From assembly GCA_021498095.1 (NCBI GenBank), contig JAIZWK010000001.1:2700001-2732000 (forward strand): DNA of 32,000 nt, written 5' to 3'. Positions 1,762 to 28,137 of the stretch are shown piece by piece. Source of the stretch: Candidatus Harpocratesius repetitus (GTDB lineage: Archaea > Asgardarchaeota > Lokiarchaeia > Sigyniarchaeales > Promethearchaeaceae). The translations under genes and the position numbers were made by a program. Each line of letters starts with the position of its first letter. Positions within the stretch are counted from its first letter, which is position 1. Under the pieces are notes generated by a model that worked only from the letters and a program-made list of their open reading frames with translations, had not been told where the DNA came from and did not search any database.

Positions 1762-2050
1762 GAGGTTCTAGCAACTTCTTTATTTTTGACAGAATTCCCA
1801 TTTTAATCCTTCATTTTCCGACAATAATCAAATTTATCCAAGAATTATTTCAGTCGGCAAAGATGAACTTTAAAAAATATAATTATGGGTTGATTTTTGA
1901 CTATTTTTAATCAAATTATAGTTGAAAATGATAAAAAAAGTTCTAAATTTTTGATCGACAAATTTCAAATTTGGATGGAATATTGGTAAATGCGTAAATT
2001 ATGCAGGATTTTTATTTTTTTATTAATCTATCAAATGTTGATAAAGGCTC
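1762..2050 (+). mobile_element. 289-bp MITE-like element, copy A
   Basis: TTAA flanks both ends (1758-1761 and 2051-2054). The imperfect TIR is GAGGTTCTAGCAAC versus GAGCCTTTATCAAC (10/14). It differs from copy B at 16 of 289 positions with no gaps. Confidence 0.9.
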
Positions 2051-2074
2051 TTAAAAAAGATCGATAAATTAGGC

Positions 2075-2113
2075 AAAAAAAGGAAAAAAAGAAGGGTTCA
2101 AATCGAGAACCCT
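2075..2113 (-). terminator. Hairpin followed by U-tracts on the minus strand
   Basis: Stem AGGGTTC (2093-2099) pairs with GAACCCT (2107-2113) around a 7-nt loop. On the minus strand it is followed by TCTTTTTTTCCTTTTTTT. Confidence 0.45.
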
Positions 2114-2496
2114 CTATTCAAGAGATAAAAAATGTTTGTGATTGTTATTATTGAAAGGTGGGATTGGATAGTATTTATTTCGTTTAAGTTAGGGTTGTTT
2201 GCTGATATGCAAGTTAAATTATTAAGAAGCACCAATGGAAAATATTTTGCGTGAATGACCTAATCCAAAATCATAAGATCAACACAACTATATAAATTTT
2301 CAGTAAATCAATTAAAATTAGCCCAATATTGAAATTGTAATATGATATTTGTATTCATTAAAATGAAAAAGATTTGATAAATTTTCAAAAACAATGATCA
2401 ATTAAATCTTTATTTTTTTTTTTGATATTCTTTCTTAATTTTATGAATCTTGTATTAGTAACCATATGTTTTGTCAGTCAAAAAACCATTTTTGCT

Positions 2497-4153
2497 TGTC
2501 ACAATTTGTCATCATATTCACATCATATAAATATAAAAAAAAGGATTCTTATTCTTTAATCCTAAGTCGAATTATACAGGAAGTTTCATAAGCAACTTGT
2601 TTTGGTGATAAATATAAAGTTCCTGTCCATCAGCAGATTCTCTGACTAGGATCTGCTGTCCTTTCATCTTGTACGAGATATAATAATATTTTCCTTTATA
2701 TCCAAATGATCCGTTATAAGAAATCTTTCTCGTTTGAGTTTTATTTCGTGAACTACTTGAAGGACTTTTAGAATGAGAGATAATACACTGTTGGCCACGA
2801 AAGATATCGATTTTTGATGGTGATATCCATATTTCTACTTCTAAACCTGCATATCCAGGCGGAATAGCAAATTGTTGTCCATGATAACTTATTAAATTTG
2901 ATTTCGTTACTTTTCGTGTTTCTCTTTCAACAATCCATCTATCCCAATTAAGTTGTACCTCTAATGGGCGATCAATTCGATTTTGTTTCCCAAAATAGAC
3001 TTTACTTGGTGAACTACGATTTGGTAAACCTCGATGTCGATGTTTTGTATTGTAAAATTCTATCCATTTTTGAAGCATTTGATTGAACTCTGTCAGAGTA
3101 ATGGTTGGATCTTGCTTAATTTGATATCGAACTTCAGATAGAAACATAGTTTTAACCGTTCCAAAGAAACGTTCGAGCTTACCTTTGGTTTGTGGATGTC
3201 GGGCACGCGCAAACACAGGTCGAATATCCAATAGTTTAAGAATCCGTTCATATTTTGATCCTAAATTTCCAAGAATATTTTTGAACTGAGTGCCATTATC
3301 CGCCAAGATCTCTAATGGACGACCGTACTTAGAGATTGCTTGCCGCAATAACTCAATAACATGTCCTGATTTTTGATCAGTTGTGTAAAAAGCGGCAACA
3401 ACAAATCGAGAACAGTCATCAAGCAAGGTGAAAAGAAAGAGGGACCCTAAATGACCAATTGTCTGAGCACCAGCAATGTCAATTTGCCATAATTCATTAG
3501 GACTCTCTCGTTCAAATGCATTATAACCCCTGCGGTATTCCGTCGAAATTCTTCCTAGTCCTTTCTTCAATAAATGTCTTCGAATTGAAGTTAACGAGGG
3601 AATTTTCGAAAATCCTTCTTTGATAAGCAAATCAGAAATGATTTGTGCAGTTCTCTTGCTATTTTCTTGTTTTAAATCAACAATCCGATTCCATACTTCA
3701 TTAGGAAATATAGAACGCTTTTGACATAGATTTGGTTTTTGAGAACGACGGGAAATATTCCCACTTTTTGCGATTTTGAGCCATCTGTACACCGTTCGAA
3801 TAGAACAGTGTTCCATGTCAGCAATTTCTTGAATAGATTTTTTTTGATGATAATATTGATGCAAAATCCGTTCAATAAGGTTGGTTTTTCCTTGATCCTT
3901 TGATTTTATCATAGAAAAATCCCCTTATCACAAAATATGTGAATAATTAACAGTTAACGCCTAATAAATAATAGATCATGTGAAAAGTGCAGAAGATTGG
4001 GATCATTTTCGTGTTTAAATTTGCATTTTCTTCGATTATGAGATGTCAATTTAATGGTTGTTGTTACAGCAACCGTCAAAAAAAATAAAGAAAAAAACCA
4101 AATTTGTGCCAGTTTTTTGTCAGTCACTAGGTGGTCAACGACAATTGTGGACA
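2497..4153 (-). mobile_element. IS481-like insertion sequence (ends approximate)
   Basis: Single DDE transposase gene. Candidate TGT-initial imperfect inverted ends are TGTCACAATTTGTCAT (2497) and the reverse complement TGTCCACAATTGTCGT (4153). No clean target duplication was found. The CDS looks more GC-rich than its flanks. Confidence 0.6.
2572..3912 (-). CDS. IS481-family/rve DDE transposase with N-terminal HTH and duplicated C-terminal Mu-transposase-like beta-barrel
   Basis: HTH: SIQEIADMEHCSIRTVYRWLK. Catalytic motifs: ELWQIDIAG (D1), ILADNGTQF (D2), HPQTKGKLERFF (E). Also YNTKHRHRGL and two TRK(V/I)..SY.G repeats at the C-terminus. Confidence 0.9.
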   Translation of the reverse strand: MIKSKDQGKTNLIERILHQYYHQKKSIQEIADMEHCSIRTVYRWLKIAKSGNISRRSQKPNLCQKRSIFPNEVWNRIVDLKQENSKRTAQIISDLLIKEGFSKIPSLTSIRRHLLKKGLGRISTEYRRGYNAFERESPNELWQIDIAGAQTIGHLGSLFLFTLLDDCSRFVVAAFYTTDQKSGHVIELLRQAISKYGRPLEILADNGTQFKNILGNLGSKYERILKLLDIRPVFARARHPQTKGKLERFFGTVKTMFLSEVRYQIKQDPTITLTEFNQMLQKWIEFYNTKHRHRGLPNRSSPSKVYFGKQNRIDRPLEVQLNWDRWIVERETRKVTKSNLISYHGQQFAIPPGYAGLEVEIWISPSKIDIFRGQQCIISHSKSPSSSSRNKTQTRKISYNGSFGYKGKYYYISYKMKGQQILVRESADGQELYIYHQNKLLMKLPV

Positions 4154-4474
4154 TTCATAAAAAAACTGAATTCTTATTTGGTTTTATACTGTCATTTCTT
4201 AATGGTTGTTAACAAATCTTGTAAATATCGGTGATTAATTTCTTGAAATTCTTTAGAATATGTAAATTTACAAATATCCTTGAGATTAAGCCAATTTCCA
4301 TATTATCATAATTTGAATCAAAAAAGTAGGTTTTTGGCACATATTTATAATTAAAATGCCCTTTTATGGGAAACTTTAAGTATGAATTCATGTTCATGTA
4401 AATTAATCAAACACTGACACCTTTGAAATATTCTTTTAGAACGGAATGATTAATATTACGGAGATTTTATTGTA

Positions 4475-5548
4475 ATGGCAGAAAATAAAAACCTAACTCC
4501 AAATGAAGAGCGAGTACTGTATGGTATCGTCCAATTCCCAGAAAAAAATGATAAAGAATTAGCTGCATTACTTCAGATGAAAGACTCAACCTTAACATCT
4601 ATAAAAAAAAGGCTGGAGCAAAATGAATTTTTTTCATATCATTTCATTCCACAATTGAATCGTTTGGGTGTTGAGCTTTTAGGAATCATCTTCACTTCTT
4701 TCAATCCAACTATTGATTTTGAAGAACGAGTAAGAATTACTAAGGATAAAATTGAAAGTGCACAAGAAATATTTTATTCCGTTGGTGCCCCTGAGATGGG
4801 TTTTTCGTTGAGTTTTACTCAAAATTATAGTAATTTTTGTGCAATAAACGAAAAAAGAACTGAAACATTTGGTGAAAAAGGTTTATTAGAAAAAGAATTC
4901 CCGCGAGAAGTAATTTTTCCCTTTCAAATTAGTTCCATTGATGAATTTTTTGATTATTCACGTTTATTTTATCATCATTTTTCACATTCTTTACAAGGAA
5001 TTACACTACAACCATCAATTACTAAACCATGGTTTAGTCCTCAATCAGAAATTACATTAAATGATAAAGAAAAAAAGGTTTTTATTGCCTTAATTGAAAA
5101 TCCTAAGGCGACTATGCAAGAAATAGGAGAAAAAGTAGATCTTTCAAGACATACAGTTGCTAGAATGAAAAAGAAATTCTTTAATGAAGATCTAATTCGA
5201 ATAAAAGTCATTCCAAATTTAAAAAAAATTGGTTTTAAACTTTTAGTCTTTTATCACTTAAAATTTAGTCCAACTGCAAAAATAAATAAAGATATCATAC
5301 AGCAGTTAAATTCTCCTTCAACTCTTTTCTGTGCACATCGAAAATTTACTGCAGTAATTATCAGTGCTTATCCGGAATATTCTGCATATAAAGAAGATAA
5401 AGTTCGAAAATTAACGTTTTTGAAGGAAAATAATATCTTAAATTATACACCTTCGCCTCGAAAATATGTATTTGAACAGATGCAGGTTATCAAAGATTTT
5501 ACTTTTTATGATATAACAAAAAAGATTCTTGGATTTCCTTTAGAATAA
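4475..5548 (+). CDS. Transcriptional regulator with two winged-HTH (Lrp/AsnC/MarR-like) modules
   Basis: Internal duplication: LTPNEERVLYGIVQFPEKNDKELAALLQMKDSTLTSIKKRL...PQLNRLG and LNDKEKKVFIALIENPKATMQEIGEKVDLSRHTVARMKKKF...PNLKKIG. Confidence 0.8.
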   Translation: MAENKNLTPNEERVLYGIVQFPEKNDKELAALLQMKDSTLTSIKKRLEQNEFFSYHFIPQLNRLGVELLGIIFTSFNPTIDFEERVRITKDKIESAQEIFYSVGAPEMGFSLSFTQNYSNFCAINEKRTETFGEKGLLEKEFPREVIFPFQISSIDEFFDYSRLFYHHFSHSLQGITLQPSITKPWFSPQSEITLNDKEKKVFIALIENPKATMQEIGEKVDLSRHTVARMKKKFFNEDLIRIKVIPNLKKIGFKLLVFYHLKFSPTAKINKDIIQQLNSPSTLFCAHRKFTAVIISAYPEYSAYKEDKVRKLTFLKENNILNYTPSPRKYVFEQMQVIKDFTFYDITKKILGFPLE

Positions 5549-6088
5549 TTAATTTAGACGATCAATTAAATCCGATGTATAAGATATCCAAAGCTTGATA
5601 TATGATCGAAATTCATCCATATTTTTAAATTCAACTTCAATCAAGTTAAAATCAGCAGGCAATACCTTAATATTTGGGTTCACTCTAAAGAATCCTTTTT
5701 TTAAAACTTCAAAAAGGTATTCAGAATTATTCATATTGCATTCGATTTTGAAAACTAAATTTGATTTTTTTGTTTTTTGATTAGATTGAGTTTGTTCAAT
5801 TGAAGTTAATAATTTTTCAAAATTTTTATTGATTATTGGAGGATTTTCTTGAACATCTTTTAATTTTCGAGAAATAATTTCTGAATCTGCAATTTTTTCA
5901 AAAATATTTTGATAACGTGCGATAAAAAGAAAACCTTCTTCAATTCCTTCAATATAGAAAGGAATTTGATTGGCATGATAAAGATTATTCAAATAATCAA
6001 AATGTTTATGAACACCTTTGAAAATAATGGGAAAATTACTTGAAATTTTAAGCACTATAGGTTCTTCTACTTTATTTCCCTCATTCAT
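5549..6088 (-). CDS. Hypothetical protein
   Basis: 179-aa ORF with host-like composition that abuts the convergent regulator gene. No motif recognised. Confidence 0.6.
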   Translation of the reverse strand: MNEGNKVEEPIVLKISSNFPIIFKGVHKHFDYLNNLYHANQIPFYIEGIEEGFLFIARYQNIFEKIADSEIISRKLKDVQENPPIINKNFEKLLTSIEQTQSNQKTKKSNLVFKIECNMNNSEYLFEVLKKGFFRVNPNIKVLPADFNLIEVEFKNMDEFRSYIKLWISYTSDLIDRLN

Positions 6089-6202
6089 TGTTTACCCTCT
6101 TTCATTTAGGGTTATCTCGCTCAATTTAAAAAATTTTTGGGAATTTTTATTTTAATTAAAAAAAAATAATCGTTTTGATAATAATTATCATCTATTTTAT
6201 TT

Positions 6203-6400
6203 TTAGCCTCCACCAAACATATGTAAAGCTAATACATTATCACCATCTTTAATTTGTGTTTTTTCATATTCTTCTGGAGGTATATAAATATTATTAATTT
6301 TTACTACAATTTCTGGGAATGTATAACGCTTTAATTCCAAAAGCTTTTTGACTGTTAAACCTTCAAACCATTCAAAATCTCTATTATTAACTTGAATCAT
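6203..6400 (-). CDS. ThiS/MoaD-family (ubiquitin-like) sulfur carrier protein
   Basis: MIQVNNRDFEWFEGLTVKKLL...VVKINNIYIP...IKDGDNVLALHMFGGG: 65 aa with a C-terminal di-Gly. The likely start is ATG at 6400. The longer track ORF extends into element C. Confidence 0.9.
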   Translation of the reverse strand: MIQVNNRDFEWFEGLTVKKLLELKRYTFPEIVVKINNIYIPPEEYEKTQIKDGDNVLALHMFGGG

Positions 6401-6457
6401 TTTATTCTCAAGTAATGAAATAATTGAAAATTCATAATTTTTACCACAATATCTTAA

Positions 6458-6746
6458 GAGGTTATAGCAGAATTCAAAAAATTGAAGGAAATCCGAAAAT
6501 CTTGCATTGACTATCCACAAAACCCAAATCTATCCCAATTTTAAATTTGTCGAAACATCGTTTAAGAAAAAAATATATAATTAAGTCAATAATTCAAAGA
6601 AAAATGATGGAAATGTGAAATTCTTGACCGCATTTAAGGGTTTAAAAGTGCCGACTCAAATAGTAATTGGATGCGCAGGAGTATTGTCGAAAATATTGGC
6701 CCAAAAGATAGAATTTGATTAAGATAAAAAAAATTGCTAGAGCCTC
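6458..6746 (-). mobile_element. 289-bp MITE-like element, copy C (divergent subfamily, opposite orientation)
   Basis: TTAA flanks both ends (6454-6457 and 6747-6750). The TIR is GAGGCTCTAGCAA versus GAGGTTATAGCAG (10/13). An ungapped alignment to copy A gives 160/289 (55%), with conserved blocks at identical offsets. Confidence 0.85.
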
Positions 6747-6784
6747 TTAAAATCAAATTAATAATTTTATAAATAAAAAGATAA

Positions 6785-7073
6785 GAGGTTCTAGCAACTT
6801 CTTTATTTTTGACTGAATTACCATTTAATTCTTTCATTTCCCGACAATAATCAAATTTATCCAAGAATTATTTCAGTCGGCAAAAATAAACTTTAGAAAA
6901 TATAATTATGGATCGATTTTTGACTATTTTTAATCAAATTATAGTTGAAAATGATAAAAAAAGTTCTAAATTTTTGATCGACAAATTTCAAATTTGGATG
7001 GAATATTGGTAAATGCGTAAATTATGCAGGATTTCTTTTTTTTTTTTAATCTATCAAATGTTGATAAAATCTC
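6785..7073 (+). mobile_element. 289-bp MITE-like element, copy B
   Basis: ATAA flanks both ends (6781-6784 and 7074-7077). The TIR is GAGGTTCTAGCAAC versus GAGATTTTATCAAC (11/14). It is about 94% identical to copy A. Confidence 0.9.
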
Positions 7074-7128
7074 ATAAAGAATTGAAAAAAAAATTGAAGA
7101 AGTAATAATAAAAGAACATAAAATGATA

Positions 7129-9300
7129 TTATTGTAATGGCTTAATGATTTCAATTAATTCCGGTAAATCCATTCCAATCTTTTGTAAATGTTCAATTGT
7201 AGGAACTCCATTCTTATTCCAACCACGGCGTTCATAAACTGCATCCATCAATTTTTCATATTGTTCAAGTCGGTATTTTCTAACAATAGCAACTTTTTCC
7301 GCAATGGATTTTCCCGTCGGATCAATACCAATCAGTTCTTTCATTTGTTTATCGTATCTTTCTTCCCGGGATTTATATTCTTCTTCAGTAACAGGTCCTA
7401 CTGCACGATACGGAACTGCATCGTGTTCTCTAAGTCCTTTTCCTAAACGAATATTAAAAATACGTTGAAAATTATAGACACGCTCTGATTGCAAAATTAA
7501 TTTTTCAGGTGTTAATTTCTCACCTGTCACTCCCTCATATATCCAGCAATAATTCTCTACATGCTCAGGAACTTTTGCTGCCTCAGTAGGAGGATAATTC
7601 TTATTACTTGGGGGGGTTATATCGTTCCATGGTAATTTGCACAATCCAACTAAGCCAAACCATGTACGAAACATGGGAAAATAATGTAAAGCTTCAGCTT
7701 TATCCTCAAAACTTGGTATTTGGTTGTTTACTTGATCCATAAAAATCAACCATGCTTCATCATGCTGAGGACCCTTATTAGTAAAGCCGTATCCTCCTTG
7801 TTGAGCGAGAGATTCTTTACTTTGATATTCAGAATATTCCAATCCTTTCTGTTCCATACCAATATCATTTACGAAATTTGGATCAGCGCCATATTTTTCA
7901 ATAAATAATTTTTTCATTCTGAGAATCCCCTGACCAATTACAACACCAAAACCTTCGCCTCGAGCCATTTGATGCAAAATCTCTAAAACGGCAGCGCTGT
8001 TTCCGAATTTAAGTTCAATTCCACCTGTTATTTCAGAATTAAGTATACCATTTTCGTAACATTCCATCGCAAATGCAGTGCTGGTGGCAAATGAAATTAT
8101 ATCAATACCGTATGTATCACAGTAGAAATTAGCTTCTAAAATAAACTGAGGATCAAAACAGCCTAAGTTTGCACCTAATCCTGCAGCATTTTCATATTCT
8201 GGCCCATCAACAGTAACCTTTTGACCCGCATAAGGCCCAGTCTTTAATTCAAATTTATCTGCAGCTTTAGAACAAGCCATTGAACACCCGTACCAGCATC
8301 CATCAGGCAAACCTTGAGTTAAGTAATTGTCACGAAACACATTGGAATATATCTTTTTTGCATCTGGATGGCCTCCAAATTTAAAGTTGTGAGTGGGGAG
8401 CAAATCATATTCATCCATAATTTCAATAATATTTGCAGTTCCAACTTGGCGCATTCGATTTTGTTTATCGTCATATTGTTGAATTTCACGATGCAATCGT
8501 AATCCTGCCTTGTTAATTAATGCTTTATTAACAGGATTGTTAAGATTTCCTTTAGTGGCTTTATTTTTGATTACAATTGCTTTAATCTTTTTATCTCGAA
8601 ACACACGGCCAATTCCACCCCGTCCCGCTTGTTTTACTCGAACTACTTTTCGACGAGGATCGTAAAATGAAAAGTTCAGCATTCCCATTCGAACAAATTC
8701 TGCGGCTTTTCCAGATGAAACGACAGAAATATTTCTTTTATCATATTCATCATCAGCGTACATTTCGGTTAGCTGTTCCGCCAATACATGACTATCAATT
8801 GCTTCTAAAGGAGCTTCTTCAATTTTTATTGAACCTGATGTTCCATCAATGAAAATTATTATGTCATTTTTTGCTTTTCCTTGAATTTCAAGTGCATCCC
8901 AGCCAGCAAATTTTAGAAAAGGTCCAAAATATCCTCCTACATTACTATCAATAACAATATCTGTTAATGGTGAAATCGATACAAGTAAAGATTTACCCGC
9001 CCCAGGATATTGAGTAATACCACAAATTGGTCCAGTACCGATGACAATCTCGTTTTCAGGATCATGCCATTTTGTTGTATTTTTAACTGCTTTCCAGAGC
9101 AAATATAAACCAAATCCTTTTCCTCCAATGAATTTTTCTTTCATTTCTGGAGTAACATCTTTTGATTCAATAACATTATTAGAAATGTTAATGTAAAGTG
9201 TTCGATTGCAATACCCTTTTTCAATGGGTCGTAATTCATAATTCCACTCTTTTAACAAAGTTCGGGCTTCTTTTAGTTTTTTAATACTTTCATTCTCCAT
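7129..9300 (-). CDS. aor: Tungsten-containing aldehyde:ferredoxin oxidoreductase family enzyme
   Basis: FIGGKGFGL, DSNVGGYFGPFLKFAGWDALEIQGK, QAGRGGIGRVF, CWYGCSMAC, DGPEYE, CDTYGIDIIS, MEQKGLEYSEY, GPQHDEA, VGLCKLPW, YERRGWNKNGVP. The start is probably MENESIKK at 9300. Confidence 0.93.
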   Translation of the reverse strand: MENESIKKLKEARTLLKEWNYELRPIEKGYCNRTLYINISNNVIESKDVTPEMKEKFIGGKGFGLYLLWKAVKNTTKWHDPENEIVIGTGPICGITQYPGAGKSLLVSISPLTDIVIDSNVGGYFGPFLKFAGWDALEIQGKAKNDIIIFIDGTSGSIKIEEAPLEAIDSHVLAEQLTEMYADDEYDKRNISVVSSGKAAEFVRMGMLNFSFYDPRRKVVRVKQAGRGGIGRVFRDKKIKAIVIKNKATKGNLNNPVNKALINKAGLRLHREIQQYDDKQNRMRQVGTANIIEIMDEYDLLPTHNFKFGGHPDAKKIYSNVFRDNYLTQGLPDGCWYGCSMACSKAADKFELKTGPYAGQKVTVDGPEYENAAGLGANLGCFDPQFILEANFYCDTYGIDIISFATSTAFAMECYENGILNSEITGGIELKFGNSAAVLEILHQMARGEGFGVVIGQGILRMKKLFIEKYGADPNFVNDIGMEQKGLEYSEYQSKESLAQQGGYGFTNKGPQHDEAWLIFMDQVNNQIPSFEDKAEALHYFPMFRTWFGLVGLCKLPWNDITPPSNKNYPPTEAAKVPEHVENYCWIYEGVTGEKLTPEKLILQSERVYNFQRIFNIRLGKGLREHDAVPYRAVGPVTEEEYKSREERYDKQMKELIGIDPTGKSIAEKVAIVRKYRLEQYEKLMDAVYERRGWNKNGVPTIEHLQKIGMDLPELIEIIKPLQ

Positions 9301-21917: not shown

Positions 21918-24215
21918 CTAACGTTTTACACATTTCCCCTTAACTATATAAAAAGATTTGCAATTACTACAAAATCCTTCACCAGTTTGATTATTCAAGC
22001 CATGAGTCCAACAAAGAGGACAGATATAATAATAAAAACGATGACCATTTTTTGAAGTGCTAATTTTTACGATGTTAAAAGAGCATATAGAACAAGTTGC
22101 TTTTAGTAAATGTGGAGTTCCTTTTTTTGGCAAACTTAAATATGTTTGGCATTTGGGATCTTCGCATACTAAGAACTTCTTCTTTTTTTGAGGACTTATT
22201 ACTAATTTCATATGATGAGTTTTACATTTTGGGCAAAATGAAGTTGATAAAGCAGGTGTCGAACCTTTTTTTTGAGATGAAATTATATTTGTATTTGTAT
22301 TTGTATTTAAGTTTGCATTTGTTGATGAACTACTTTTTTGTTTAGAAGAAGTGATTATCTTATTATTTCTACCTCTAATTATATTGCCTGTGCTTTGAAT
22401 CGGCTGAATCTTCGAAACAATTTGTGATTTTTGAGCTCGAAATAAATCGAATAACTTTAAAAATTCTAATTTAATGGAATCTACTACATCATTATATTTT
22501 ATTTGCTGATTCTTTACTTCTTCTAATAATTTTTCCACTTTAGCGGTAAAAGATGGTTCTAAAAATGGTTTCCAAATGTTTTTAAGCGCATCAATTAATA
22601 AAAATCCAAAATCCATTAAATATATAGATCTTCCTTTGCGTTGTATATAGCTTCGATCAATTAAAATTTGTATAATCGCAGGTCGGGTAGATTTGGTTCC
22701 AAGATTTTTTTGCTCCATTAATTGTAGTAAACTTGTATCAGTATAACGAGGTGGTGGCTGAGTTTCTTTCTCTTCAAAATTAATCTTATTAATAGGAAAT
22801 TTAGGTTTTTTCAAGTTTGGATCAATATATTGAGTTATCATTGGCATTGGAGCTGAATATTTTGGGGAAAGAAATGGTGCAATAATGTAAAATCCTTGTT
22901 TTAATAAAGTTTTGAATTGTCCAAGAAATTTCTCTCCCTTAATATCGAATAATACCCGTGTTTCAGATTCTTCAGCTTTTTCACCAAACAATGCTAAATA
23001 ATGTCGAGTAATAAGATTATACACTTGTTCTTGCAGTTTATTTTCAAAAACATTAGCTGATGGTTCAAGTGATTTTAGGGGACTTATTGGAGAATGATCT
23101 CCTGCATTTTTGCGTCCTTGTCGAGGGTTTATCCGGTTATTTTTGAATAAATCTCTAGTATAACCTCCGTAAAGCGAATGTGTTAAGAATTTTTGAAGTA
23201 CGCTTTTATGATCATAATTTGGAGAATAAACATCGGAATCTGTTCGAGGATATGTGATTAATTTGTTTAAATATAAATCTTCCAAGGTTTTTAGAGCTTG
23301 TTTGGCGGTGATTTTAAGATTTTTTGTAATTAATTGGAGTGCTCGGGAAGTATTCAAAGGTGTGGGCGGTAATATTTTCTTAGTTTTCATTGAAATTTGC
23401 TCTAATTGTGCAAATTTTTCATTAGATATTGTGTTATATATTCTTTCTGCAATTTTTTTATCAATAAAATTATTATTTTGATGATTTACACGTAAATTTC
23501 TATTTCCAATCTTAAGATCTGCAGAAATACTCCAAAATGGAGTAGGTTTAAAGTTTCTTATTATATCCTCCCGTAAATAAATAAGGTATAGTAGAGAGGT
23601 TTGGACACGCCCAATAGATGCAAATTTAATGTTAAGGGAATTTAGTATGTTTTTCAAAGTCAAAGAAACTTCTCTTGTGGCCGAAAAACCAATAATTGCA
23701 TCAATTTGAGCCCTTGCTTCACCAGAAAATGCCCATGACCATTTTGGAGGAATCAATTGGTTGAAAGCTTGTTGAATTGTCTTTTTTTGAAGATCATTTA
23801 GCCATAATTGTGCCAGTTTTATCTGCGGATTAGCTTGCTTAACAAAAGGAATAGCATCCATTAATCCAATATTACAACCTTCAACATCGGCATCTGTTCC
23901 AATAATACACGTATCACATTTTTTTCCATATTGTTTCAGAGCTGAAATATAAGCACCTGCATAAGTAGTGGGAATTTTTGCAATTGCATGGGGATCGGTT
24001 ATAATATCTCGAGGATCTTTGGCGGTCCATTTTTTATATGGAGCAGTATTTTCATATTGTTGAATATGTCCCCGTAAAGGTAAAACATATATATTTCTTG
24101 AAGGAATTTGATAAACAGATACTAATTTATTCACTTGCACTTTTTTTGTTTGTCCCAATGCTTCAGCAATTGCTTGTGCTGCTTTATTTTTCTCAGAAAT
24201 GATTAAAGTGCTCAT
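21918..24215 (-). CDS. topA: Type IA DNA topoisomerase (topoisomerase III-like) with C-terminal Zn ribbons
   Basis: TOPRIM: LIISEKNKAAQAIA and IGTDADVEG. Also SIGRVQTSLL, active site LITYPRTDS, DHSPISP, MEQKNLGTKSTR, and C-terminal CPKC..CEDPKC..CSIC..CPLC..CSNC. Confidence 0.95.
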   Translation of the reverse strand: MSTLIISEKNKAAQAIAEALGQTKKVQVNKLVSVYQIPSRNIYVLPLRGHIQQYENTAPYKKWTAKDPRDIITDPHAIAKIPTTYAGAYISALKQYGKKCDTCIIGTDADVEGCNIGLMDAIPFVKQANPQIKLAQLWLNDLQKKTIQQAFNQLIPPKWSWAFSGEARAQIDAIIGFSATREVSLTLKNILNSLNIKFASIGRVQTSLLYLIYLREDIIRNFKPTPFWSISADLKIGNRNLRVNHQNNNFIDKKIAERIYNTISNEKFAQLEQISMKTKKILPPTPLNTSRALQLITKNLKITAKQALKTLEDLYLNKLITYPRTDSDVYSPNYDHKSVLQKFLTHSLYGGYTRDLFKNNRINPRQGRKNAGDHSPISPLKSLEPSANVFENKLQEQVYNLITRHYLALFGEKAEESETRVLFDIKGEKFLGQFKTLLKQGFYIIAPFLSPKYSAPMPMITQYIDPNLKKPKFPINKINFEEKETQPPPRYTDTSLLQLMEQKNLGTKSTRPAIIQILIDRSYIQRKGRSIYLMDFGFLLIDALKNIWKPFLEPSFTAKVEKLLEEVKNQQIKYNDVVDSIKLEFLKLFDLFRAQKSQIVSKIQPIQSTGNIIRGRNNKIITSSKQKSSSSTNANLNTNTNTNIISSQKKGSTPALSTSFCPKCKTHHMKLVISPQKKKKFLVCEDPKCQTYLSLPKKGTPHLLKATCSICSFNIVKISTSKNGHRFYYYICPLCWTHGLNNQTGEGFCSNCKSFYIVKGKCVKR
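22286..22308. repeat. (TATTTG)x3.8 in-frame microsatellite encoding NTNTNTN in the topoisomerase linker
   Basis: Read directly. It matches SSSSTNANLNTNTNTNIISS in the protein. Confidence 0.8.
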
Positions 24216-24239
24216 TAATTTATAAACTCCAAGATCCTT

Positions 24240-24329
24240 TTTTTTAATCTAATTTTTTAATCTAATTTTTTAATCTAATTTTTTAATCTAATTTTTTAAT
24301 CTAATTTTTTAATCTAATTTTTTATCTAA
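24240..24329. repeat. 13-bp tandem repeat TTTTTTAATCTAA x6 plus one 12-bp variant that contains the helicase stop codon
   Basis: Perfect copies start at 24240, 24253, 24266, 24279, 24292 and 24305. The variant TTTTTTATCTAA is at 24318-24329 and includes CTA (24326-24328), the TAG stop on the minus strand. Confidence 0.92.
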
Positions 24330-27300
24330 TTTTTGATTTCTAAATCAAATGGAGAAAGTTTCCAGTATCCGTTTGAATTTTTAATATGTAAAAGAAGCTG
24401 GTTATGAATTGATTTAATCTTTTTTGTTTGTGGGGAATTATTTGTTGATTTAGAACATAATGTGGCTGAATCTCCAATAAAAATAATCTTAGTTCGAGCA
24501 CGACTGATTGCAACATTTAACCTACGAAAATCTGAGTTCAAGGAGCTTAATTCATGATCTGGTCTTGAATCCACAAAACTATAGATTATCACTTCTCTTT
24601 CATTTCCTTGAAATCTATCAACAGTATCCACTGTAATATCACTAAAAGATATATTTTTATTACTCATTTGAATTTCTTTAATTTGTTTATTTCTTAGATT
24701 TTTTTGAATAGTATTTACAAATTCAGATATTTTTGCATTATGCGCTCGAAATGCAGAAATTATTCCTATATTTTCTAAAATTTCATTAATTGCAATTAGC
24801 TTAATATTTGAACCATGAAGTGCAGTTAATAATTCTTTGATAATAACTTTGATTGTAGTTATTTCAGTTGTATTGTATTTTGATTCATTTCCAGCACCTA
24901 AATGATTATAGGATGAATCATATCCTTTCAATTGCTTTGTATCTAAGAAAATCATACTGTTAGATGAATTCCAAACAAATTTCCCAAGATTGGAAAGTGT
25001 AAGGAAAATATTTTGGATTTGAGTAGACTTTGGAATAAATTGAGAAAGAAAATCAAACCATGTAAAATCTCCGATATTCTTGCTGTTAATTGTACCAGGA
25101 ATTAATTTATCTTCATAAAATGTGTGTGAAATAAACTGTGAAATCGTTTTATGCATTCTATATTGTGATTGTAGTAATGTAAAATTCGAAGTATTTTGAA
25201 ATCGAGGTAGAAGTCGCTCAAAAAGTGTTTTATTTAATCCAGACTGATAATCAAAATTCAATTTTGCAAATAGTGGATTATTAACTAAATTCTCTAAATT
25301 TTTATCATCATTAATAACTTCATATTGAGTTATTGGTGGTAATTGTTGATGATCTCCTACTAATACTCCTTTTTCTCCTTTTAACAAAGGAATTATTGCT
25401 CCAGGTTCCAAAATCTGCCCGGCTTCATCTAAAATCACCATAGCAAAGAAGTATGGTTCAAGTAATAATGATCCAACCATAGTTGTGGTTGTTGCAACTA
25501 CATCTACATTTTCTAGCAACAAACGCGCTTTTAATGGATCAACAGCTAAAATTTCGTTTTGATCATATAATTTTTTCTTATATGTACATAAAATTTCTAA
25601 ATTATGACTTTTAACAATTTTAGAATTAGAACTATGAACATTGCCGATGCGGATGCATTTGATTTTTGGATAGCGCTGAATCAATTTCTCTACTAAAAGA
25701 TCAACAGCTTTATTTGTAAAAGCACAAATTAACACAGGAATTTTTGGAGGGATATAGCGTTTTCGAGTTTTAAAAAAACGATCCAATGCATTTACTCGAT
25801 TTTTAGGTGGATTTTTGTTTTGTAGGTGATTATTTTGGTACATTTTAAGAAAATAGTGGATGATTTCAGTGATTACTGTTGTTTTTCCAGTTCCTGGAGG
25901 CCCTTGAATTAGTGCTAGTCGTTGAGCTTGTAGTGCACTATTAATAGCTTGTATTTGACTTTGATTTAAGTTATTTTTAGTCTCATTTTTATCTTCTTTT
26001 TCTTTTTCAAACTCAGAAATTGATGGAATTTTTTTAATTAATTTAGGATACTCTTTAAAAAGGAGTAAATCTTTGAGAAGTTGCTCATGACTTTGTTCTG
26101 GATTAAATGATGCTCTGATAAATACATCTAATGCTTGTTTATACTGCCAAATATGATAATTTGAGAAGGAAAAATCAATTCGATATTTTTGTTTTGCAAA
26201 ATCTTTTCCAAATTTTTCTAATGTCTGTGAAGTTTGAACGATAATGATTTCTGAATTGATTTCAGTTATTATTCCACTTATACTACCTACCTTGTACTTA
26301 TTTAATGTCTGTGGGGTGATTAATATATAATCACCTGAGCGAAATCGAGTTTTTTGATTTGAATTGGCAGCTGGTTTAGAAAATTGATATTGGAATGATT
26401 GATTTATCAAATTTTTTGACCTAGATTGTGAACAATCATCAATAATTAAGGTTAATCCCCCAATTGCTACACCTTTCTCTTCTTGAATCTGGATTTCGTT
26501 AAAACTCTTTAGCATATCGCGTTTAACAGCCAAAAATTCGTGATCAATTAAAAATTGAAACCAATCAGCATAAAATCGGATAAGTTTTAGATCTTTTTTA
26601 AATGTAGACTCAGAGATGGAACTTGTTTGAAAAATTATATCATTAATAGTTTGTTCGTTAGTTGATGCGCCAGATTTTAAATTTAATTGATAAAATTTAT
26701 CTTTATATAGATTTAAGTAAATTTTACATATTTTTTTTGCACTGCATTGAGCACAAGGTGTATCTGGTTTCTTTAAAGGAGTAAGTCCGACTAAAAAACT
26801 CCATAATTTATTTCTAATTTTCAATATTCGTAAAAAATCGGGAGATTGCAGCGCTATGGCTTTATTGGATGCGATTTCTTTGTTTTTGTTCGGTGGATTT
26901 AATGAATAATGTGAAAAACGCTCATTTGGGGGATGTCGCGGATATTCAATAAGAATCTCTTCGATATTCCATTGATATAAATCTTGCAAAATTGCCCCAT
27001 AAGTTAAACCTTGATAATATGCAATCATTTGAGATGCTCTTTTACTTCTTCCCGTTTTTGTTTCTATAATAGTACATCGTTCTTGTTTTAAATCTAAAAT
27101 AAATCTATCAATCCTTCCTTGTAATCCAATCACAGGTGATTGAACAAATTTTTCACAGAATATGTCAAAACGTGAAAATTTTTTTTGATAATCTTGCAAA
27201 TGAGTTCTTATAAATTCCAATTCATTTTCTAAAAAGTTTTCATAAAATTCATTAATAATATTCTTTTCTAATTTTCCTAAAATCACAAAATACTGCCAAT

Positions 27301-27936: not shown

Positions 27937-27989
27937 TAATATTTGGCTCTGTAATTATTTTTTAAATTGATAAAAGAAGAATTTTCGAT

Positions 27990-28037
27990 TTTTTGCATTT
28001 TTGCATTTTTGCATTTTTGCATTTTTGCATTTTTGCA
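27990..28037. repeat. 8-bp tandem repeat TTTTTGCA x6 in the divergent promoter region
   Basis: Perfect copies start at 27990, 27998, 28006, 28014, 28022 and 28030. Confidence 0.92.
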
Positions 28038-28137
28038 TTTTTTGTTAATTCCAAAATTCAAAATTTTCAAACTATATATTTTTATACTTATCAGTTAAAG
28101 TAATTACCAAACAAGTTAAATATATGAGAGTGATTTA

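Follow-up and report, generated by a model that had tools for sequence, protein, structure and literature searches.

Within a window of 32,000 nucleotides from the Lokiarchaeial genome of Candidatus Harpocratesius repetitus (contig JAIZWK010000001.1, positions 2,700,001 to 2,732,000) lie three short non-coding elements, copies A, B and C, that belong to two undescribed families. These families are of the ordinary MITE kind, and their architecture is unusually rigid. We consider it very probable that they are recently active MITEs that depend on a DDE transposase acting in trans and that owe their length mostly to rigid multipartite ends.

Copy A (family A, 289 bp, forward strand) occupies positions 1762–2050 of the window and is flanked by a TTAA target-site duplication (1758–1761 and 2051–2054). 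Its outer terminal inverted repeat has a left arm at 1762–1775 (GAGGTTCTAGCAAC) and a right arm at 2037–2050. Inward of the left arm lies a subterminal module (1818–1857, forward strand) made up of CCGAC at element positions 57–61, ATCC at 75–78 and GTCGG at 92–96, and its mirror image stands at equal offsets from the right end (1955–1994, reverse strand; inverted repeats I20 and I23). Copy C (family C, 289 bp, reverse strand) spans 6458–6746, with TTAA at 6454–6457 and 6747–6750, and is 99.7% identical to a copy at genome position 2826805. Copy B, a second family A element of 289 bp on the forward strand, spans 6785–7073 between ATAA duplications at 6781–6784 and 7074–7077; this duplication is non-palindromic and thereby fixes the element ends at GAG...CTC.

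When we recomputed the coordinates, lengths and identities given in the initial annotation, they agreed throughout, as did the 4-bp duplications on both sides of each copy. At each of the six ends, the outer GAG..T.TA terminus and an inner box with ATCC at 75–78 and GTCG at 92–95 stood in register. Without gaps, A and B matched at 273 of 289 positions (94.5%), and A matched the reverse complement of C at 160 of 289. The annotation had further held that A and C need no gap anywhere. In the middle of the element (101–189) only 37 of 89 positions were identical, as compared with 29.6 ± 4.1 in shuffles (P = 0.048), and register 0 was not the best register. The register can thus be demonstrated only over about 1–100 and 190–289, and the absence of gaps is a statement about the ends and the total length and not about the middle.

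A genome-wide nhmmer search found 82 loci, of which 58 were full length, 29 in family A (91–98% identical to copy A) and 29 in family C. The combined end pattern had 105 matches in the genome, as against none for the reversed control. The longest stop-free stretch in the MITEs encoded 35–66 amino acids and differed between families, leaving no conserved coding capacity. Among the 52 copies with intact GA...TC termini, 40 were 289 bp long, ten were 288 bp, one was 291 bp and one was 293 bp, all well below the ~600 bp that bounds MITEs. A 288-bp variant, C', comprised five copies identical at 288 of 288 positions and a sixth that was ~92% identical. The same genome also harbored family D, with 47 full-length copies of 312 bp (range 309–313) inserted at AATT, and a 603-bp A::D composite at two loci with differing duplications, in which the D parts were 97% and the A parts ~94% identical; the composite may have transposed as a unit, or D may have inserted twice, independently, into the same AATT. 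The proposal that these elements are held at exactly 289 bp therefore describes 40 of the 52 intact-ended A and C copies but does not extend to family D, at 312 bp, or to MITEs of related genomes, at 290, 313 and 336 bp.

The elements had been described as mobile, with duplicated T/A-rich 4-mers at their flanks and bipartite, mirror-symmetric ends, and the genome bears this out. Perfectly identical 4-mers flanked 50 of the 52 intact-ended copies, with a chance expectation of ~0.007 per copy. The most frequent were TTAT (14), TTAA (13), ATAA (11) and ATAT (5), alongside others, and together they defined a palindromic target consensus, T|WTAW|A. Paralogous empty sites carried one TTAA or one AATT, and two C copies, those at 1493874 and 2571863, had exact paralogous empty sites with a single TTAA. 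In the same-genus genome G002, the orthologous intergenic region lacked both C and B. In run X3, one contig from a closely related strain matched the window up to 6457 and resumed at 7085, skipping 6458–7084, with 32 differences from the window across its 557-nucleotide left segment. Each of the five identical C' copies sat at a locus of its own and had a different duplication, and copies 100% identical to one another occurred as three pairs in family A and three pairs in family C. These empty sites, the related strain without C and B and the sets of identical copies show that transposition was recent. A DNA search of 40 relatives, among them two fragmented same-genus MAGs (87–92% complete), did not find family A.

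The end architecture recurred in insertion sequences (ISs) and MITEs of other Lokiarchaeia. The ends of both kinds of element were ~96 bp long, imperfectly inverted and multipartite, with blocks at fixed coordinates: a terminal GAGG.T.TA..CA, shared by all families at either end, TT(A/G)A at 25–28, CCGAC at 57–61, ATCC at 75–78 and GTCG(G/A) at 92–96. All 16 ends from eight MITE families aligned in register, with the inner box noted at 75–95 at identical offsets. Family D occurred in this genome (G000) and in G002. The search of relatives admitted MITEs of 252–452 bp and returned no matches for reversed controls; seven families from six genomes fell at 288–290 bp (A, C and those of G048 and G054), 312–313 bp (D and that shared by G010 and G006) and 336 bp (G014). 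A scan of genome contigs with the single-end pattern yielded, among the matches listed, almost exclusively chance hits in unrelated bacteria.

These conserved blocks also bear on an RNA function, which the initial annotation had raised as an alternative. According to this alternative, the elements are, or have become, genes for functional RNAs or regulatory modules of the host, and RNA structure or a role in the host keeps their length constant. Nearly all of the copies that we examined were intergenic, and the 313-bp family had conserved blocks in its middle, as might be expected of such modules. However, the elements had no Rfam match, and their minimum free energies were no better than those of shuffled sequences (z = −0.56 and +0.83). 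Moreover, what is conserved is a set of mirror-symmetric DNA motifs that also occur at the ends of the autonomous IS, and the presence or absence of copies varied among close strains. We regard an RNA or regulatory function as highly improbable.

The annotation had reported no matching transposase in the window. This is correct for the window, and a matching autonomous element lies elsewhere in the genome. This element, ISx (genome positions 2233279–2235103), is 1825 bp long, is flanked by a TTAA duplication and is filled by a single ORF encoding a transposase of 496 amino acids (P0001) of the DDE_Tnp_1 type, with catalytic residues D237, D327 and E393, which were invariant across 17 homologues. 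PF01609 matched residues 292–425 (E = 1.4e-7) and was the sole Pfam match at E values up to 1. The best IS model in NCBIfam was that of IS1182 (NF033551), at 32.3 bits where the cut-off is 270, and no IS5 model in NCBIfam matched. The earlier suggestion of an IS5-like element was nonetheless close, as the partner transposase belongs to the IS4/IS5/IS1182 supergroup. Both ends of ISx had the MITE-type terminus and an ATCC-N13-GTCG box at 75–95, and its left end matched the left end of A at 61 of 100 positions in register, as many as A matched C. Going by these shared ends, A, B and C probably borrow the ISx transposase in trans; ISx itself is present as a single intact copy. Two other P0001-like genes (3318266–3319612 and 3573357–3574631, ~33% identical) lacked MITE-type ends, and no IS with family D-type termini was found in this genome. 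The MITEs and the sampled ISs shared only the terminus and the box at 73–100, with no similarity between their interiors; judged by sequence, the MITEs are not recent deletion derivatives of ISx. Including ISx, the ISs measured 1825–1836 bp, with transposases of 489–505 amino acids. Those of exactly 1836 bp with the box at 75 came from G006, G019, one NCBI MAG and one Logan contig, and their transposases were 37–52% identical to P0001. The ISx clade appears so far only in Asgard archaea.

On this reading, insertion cuts the palindromic T|WTAW|A target with a 4-bp stagger, and those 4 bp are duplicated. The transposase, either unaided or together with an architectural protein of the host, would contact both the terminus and the subterminal module, such that an indel anywhere in the terminal 96 bp would abolish mobility and the variant would not be propagated. 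This end constraint, combined with shared descent from one founder and copying in recent bursts, would leave the majority of copies 289 bp long.

The pattern of indels could be compared with a neutral rate taken from singleton mutations in full-length copies of this one genome, which comprised 228 private substitutions and 16 indels, or ~14 substitutions per indel. At that rate, the ends of A and C, with 75 differences and no indel, were depleted of indels (P = 0.005), as was the 313-bp family, which had 111 differences and no indel and was in register throughout (P = 4e-4), with a gap-free middle only 64.5% identical. Indels were thus depleted between diverged lineages, which indicates that spacing is constrained, and selection against indels has statistical support in both comparisons. 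The most plausible source of the constraint is the geometry of transposase–DNA contacts, and the constant length would then mostly reflect long, multi-part ends with unchangeable internal spacing.

These results weigh against an explanation without any length selection, in which A and C descend from one 289-bp founder and have kept its length through rare indels, descent and chance. Within subfamilies, copies are 90–100% identical, and equal length is expected there in any case. Between A and C, the middle is near saturation and its register undemonstrable, and the equal central length could be due to chance, for which a rough random-walk estimate, not formally computed, gave ~0.1. However, the absence of indels in the two comparisons above is poorly explained by rarity at 14 substitutions per indel, and the block offsets are identical in 16 ends of eight deeply diverged families as well as in ISs whose transposases are 33–52% identical to P0001. 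We therefore consider the absence of selection improbable.

Constrained end spacing, which we continue to favor, does not by itself account for two observations: the equal central 97 bp of A and C, and the presence of unrelated families at 288–290, 312–313 and 336 bp. An alternative is that total length itself is selected, in discrete classes of ~289, 312 and 336 bp (steps of 23–24 bp). The linker between the two 96-bp end complexes would then have to be of certain lengths to fit a compact transpososome, looped or wrapped, in which histones or some other architectural protein might take part. The clustering of seven families from six genomes into these classes when 252–452 bp was admitted is consistent with this possibility, as is the in-register middle of the 313-bp family. 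The 1836-bp ISs point the same way: with transposases only 37–52% identical to P0001, all are exactly this long, and minor length differences in their 5′ region and N terminus cancel each other out. On the other hand, the seven families include several related by descent and provide few independent points. The central spacers, at 97, 120 or 121 and 144 bp, do not fall into one helical phase, and the T-tracts gave no sign of a 10.5-bp repeat, with no periodicity at 10–11 bp in the spacer at 12–75. Helical phasing and a chromatin wrap, both raised in the initial annotation, are speculative explanations. Furthermore, variants of ±1 bp have been amplified (C' at 288 bp, D at 309–313 bp), and the 603-bp composite, which may have moved as a unit, occurs at two loci. 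Selection on total length is thus a real but minority possibility in our assessment.

A more specific version, to which we give a somewhat lower chance still, is that these elements form an Asgard-specific superfamily of ISs and MITEs with a rigid nucleoprotein complex on each ~96-bp end (the terminus plus a dyad, CCGAC-N31-GTCGG, centered on ATCC), in which only discrete lengths are competent for transposition. If so, the complex would constitute a 'molecular ruler' for transposon size (~289, 312 or 336 bp for MITEs and 1836 bp for ISs), and DNA wrapped around an archaeal chromatin protein might provide its scale.

Among the prokaryotic MITEs that arose from DDE insertion sequences are the Correia elements of Neisseria and the archaeal MITEs of Sulfolobus and haloarchaea. 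The elements described here resemble them in being small, non-coding, multi-copy and mostly intergenic, with terminal inverted repeats and short duplications, and in having a candidate IS with matching ends that might mobilize them in trans. They differ in their ~96-bp shared ends, where five or more conserved blocks keep fixed positions, in interiors unrelated to any sampled IS and in the discrete lengths that diverged families keep. With IS1182 and IS5 they share the PF01609 catalytic domain, G-rich GAG termini and a 4-bp T/A-rich target. The size range of IS1182 elements in ISfinder includes 1.8 kb, although P0001 scores far below the equivalog cut-off for that family; IS5-family elements are ~0.8–1.5 kb in ISfinder, shorter than the 1825–1836 bp found here. 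To our knowledge, neither family has been described as having a subterminal module at 57–96.

A resemblance to piggyBac, offered in the initial annotation as an analogy, can be seen in the palindromic 4-bp duplication of the TTAA type and in the short terminal and internal repeats at each end, and piggyBac transposase ranked fourth among the structural neighbors of the P0001 model, a weak match (E = 2.5e-4, TM 0.35) that was surpassed by Tn5 (IS4 family). It does not amount to membership: P0001 has no piggyBac Pfam domain (DDE_Tnp_1_7), the target is WTAW (TTAT, TTAA, ATAA, ATAT) or AATT rather than strictly TTAA, and the inner boxes are symmetric, at 75–95 from both ends. Subterminal binding sites or a bend within the end are known from IS10/Tn10 (with IHF), Tc3, the IR/DR ends of Sleeping Beauty, Mu and Tn7. 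Like these, the present ends combine a terminal cleavage site with a putative inner contact region at fixed spacing; they differ in enzyme family and in host, an Asgard archaeon having histones in place of IHF.

The literature that we searched contained no description of these families and nothing specific on IS1182 target duplications or on length constraints in archaeal MITEs, and the genome paper of the organism mentions only '4% repetitive sequence', not MITEs. The elements document ongoing or very recent transposition in a Lokiarchaeial genome, and they identify a probable transposase and define an Asgard-restricted clade of DDE_Tnp_1 ISs whose ends are unusually long and precisely spaced. 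Their copies are markers of strain-level insertion polymorphism and break short-read assemblies. The system could also be a starting point for a transposon-based genetic tool, with TWTAWA as its defined target, in organisms for which no such tool exists. Finally, the scarcity of indels, together with the length classes that recur, provides a natural experiment on the geometric constraints that act in transpososome assembly.

The window occupies positions 2700001–2732000 of one contig, 4.36 Mb long (31% G+C), and the three 289-bp elements in question all lie between long ORFs. The initial annotation had described them as copies with 4-bp flanking duplications and GAG...CTC ends, and we confirmed their coordinates, flanks and identities: A (1762–2050, forward strand) and C (6458–6746, reverse strand) have TTAA on both sides and B (6785–7073, forward strand) has ATAA, with A matching B at 273/289 positions and the reverse complement of C at 160/289 without gaps. 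Because the ATAA around B is non-palindromic, the element boundaries are fixed at GAG...CTC. The window also holds two tandem arrays, one with ~9 copies of a 13-bp unit, TTTTTTAATCTAA (24214–24343), and one with ~7 copies of an 8-bp unit, GCATTTTT (27981–28042).

Iterated nhmmer searches of the genome identified 82 loci, 58 of them full length (29 in family A, which includes B, and 29 in family C). The profile of each family matched the other family with E values of 1e-6 to 1e-9, indicating that the two are homologous. Termini were intact in 52 copies, of which 40 were 289 bp, 10 were 288 bp, and one each was 291 and 293 bp, such that length did not vary widely within the family. The 4-bp duplication was likewise general, with the same 4-mer on both sides of 50 of these 52 copies (chance expectation ~0.007 per copy): TTAT in 14, TTAA in 13, ATAA in 11, ATAT in 5 and others in 7. 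Extending the duplication by one base at either side gives the palindromic target T|WTAW|A.

Families A and C are mobile and have moved recently. When the flanks of a copy were joined through one copy of its duplication, uninterrupted paralogous sequences were recovered in the genome for some copies, and for the C copies at genome positions 1493874 and 2571863 these were exact empty sites with a single TTAA, of the kind the initial annotation had suggested seeking. Five copies of a 288-bp variant of family C, each at its own locus and with its own duplication sequence, were identical at 288/288 positions, and each family contained three pairs of 100%-identical copies. The orthologous intergenic region of a same-genus genome (G002) lacked both C and B. 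In an independent 2025 sequencing run, a closely related strain was represented by a 12.9-kb contig whose left segment (557 nt) shows 32 differences from the window. This contig tracks the window as far as base 6457, where the TTAA preceding C ends, and rejoins it at 7085 after 63 other letters; the strain occurs at ~55x depth in that sample and lacks both MITEs at the locus (window positions 5900–7600). The family-C element at 1493874 interrupts one copy of an unrelated ~551-bp repeat (genome 512244–512828 and ~20–36 other loci), which has 28-bp inverted ends (GGCTATTTTTAATTACGAAGGATCAATT...), has no long ORF and is probably another MITE.

A search for the terminal motif among genome sequences outside the MITE catalogue led to the autonomous element with matching ends that had been sought. 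This insertion sequence, ISx, lies outside the window (genome 2233279–2235103; 1825 bp, TTAA flanks), and its single ORF encodes a 496-aa transposase (P0001) with a Pfam DDE_Tnp_1 domain (E 1.4e-7). The best NCBIfam match was IS1182, at 32 bits, far under the cut-off of 270. D237, D327 and E393 were invariant across 17 homologues (31–59% identity), and among the structural neighbours of an AlphaFold model (pLDDT 82), all of them weak matches (TM ~0.3), Tn5 transposase ranked first and piggyBac fourth. In a collection of 5.8 billion proteins, the homologues bearing a name came from Asgard archaea, the closest (82%) labeled Candidatus Harpocratesius sp. One truncated, frameshifted ISx copy, together with several left or right ends standing alone (genome 88753–89997; 2649060; 3490025; 1877408; 2913465; 3499857), points to past ISx activity and decay. 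Chance similarity to the right terminus of A also surfaced a 2.8–4 kb repeat family of ~12 copies (genome 1334491–1337303, 1573527–1576343, 2794665–2797808 and ~9 more), which is probably another IS.

Both ends of A, C and ISx align in register, sharing GAGg.T.TAgcaa at 1–13 and ATCC.a.t..ta..T..GTCG at 75–95, which bears out the outer terminus and inner box originally proposed. The left end of ISx matched that of A at 61/100 positions, the same as A matched C. This two-motif pattern had 105 matches in the genome, versus 0 for a reversed control, and paired matches were spaced 289 bp (33 pairs), 288 bp (7) or 1825 bp (1, ISx) apart. The same architecture bounds ISs of exactly 1836 bp in four different sources (the relatives' genomes G006 and G019, an NCBI MAG and a Logan contig; L017:1068–2903, L018:1327–3162, L043:1–1836, L044:1207–3042), whose transposases are 37–52% identical to P0001, and single ends occur in G008, G014 and a Sigynarchaeota contig. 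Across 16 ends of 8 MITE families, columns 1–3, 6, 8, 25–28, 57–61, 75–78, 80 and 92–96 were invariant or nearly so, among them CCGAC (57–61), ATCC (75–78) and GTCGG/A (92–96), with CCGAC and GTCGG forming a dyad centered on ATCC. These fixed columns indicate that the ends are ~96-bp multipartite inverted repeats, beyond which the MITEs and ISs compared had no further sequence in common.

As a universal length, 289 bp did not hold; it is one of at least three length classes. A third family in this genome, D (genome 479332–479641 and 46 further loci, all outside the window; L152 is an example), has 47 full copies, 37 of 312 bp and the remainder of 309–313 bp. Its termini (GAGGATATTTTATC / GAGGGTATTTTAAATTT) are similar to those bounding the 1836-bp ISs in G019 and the NCBI MAG, its subterminal module is that of A and C, its target was AATT in 27/40 copies, and it recurs at 312 bp in G002. 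Relatives carry a 313-bp family (G010 and G006) and a 336-bp element (G014), and G048 and G054, which belong to another family of the order, have elements of 290 bp flanked by AATT and TCTA duplications.

As a yardstick for indels we used private (singleton) mutations in the three families of this genome, which comprised 228 substitutions and 16 indel events (~14:1). Against this ratio, the alignable ends of A and C had 75 differences and no indels (P ~0.005), and within the 313-bp family the two most divergent members had 111 differences and no indels (P ~4e-4), with register 0 best in every 30-nt window, the middle included. Selection against indels is therefore real, and the sharing of the constrained coordinates with the autonomous ISs places it at the level of DNA and transposition. 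The alternative of an RNA function found no support: the elements had no Rfam match, their folding energies were indistinguishable from those of shuffled sequences (z –0.56 and +0.83), and no ORF was conserved between families. The long, rigidly spaced ends of the IS clade probably explain most of the 289-bp constancy. End spacing does not account for the equal length (97 bp) of the central segments in A and C, whose middles are poorly alignable (37/89 identical, P 0.048), or for the clustering of unrelated families at 288–290, 312–313 and 336 bp. A 'ruler' of total length, either replacing end spacing or extending it, seems rather unlikely, as variants of ±1 bp have been amplified, central spacers have no common helical phase, T-tracts have no 10.5-bp periodicity, and 603-bp A::D composites, in each of which one D copy has the same AATT of a family-A copy as its insertion point, occupy two loci with different duplications.

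As MITEs of a DDE insertion sequence, the elements belong to an ordinary kind, but no detailed description of them appears to exist: Ca. Harpocratesius repetitus FW102 was named for its 4% repeats, and neither its genome paper nor the supplements mention MITEs (PMC8813620). The MITE families are clearly active and, judging from their shared ends, are tied to an IS clade that appears restricted to Asgard archaea, and the discrete lengths into which they fall are a real oddity.
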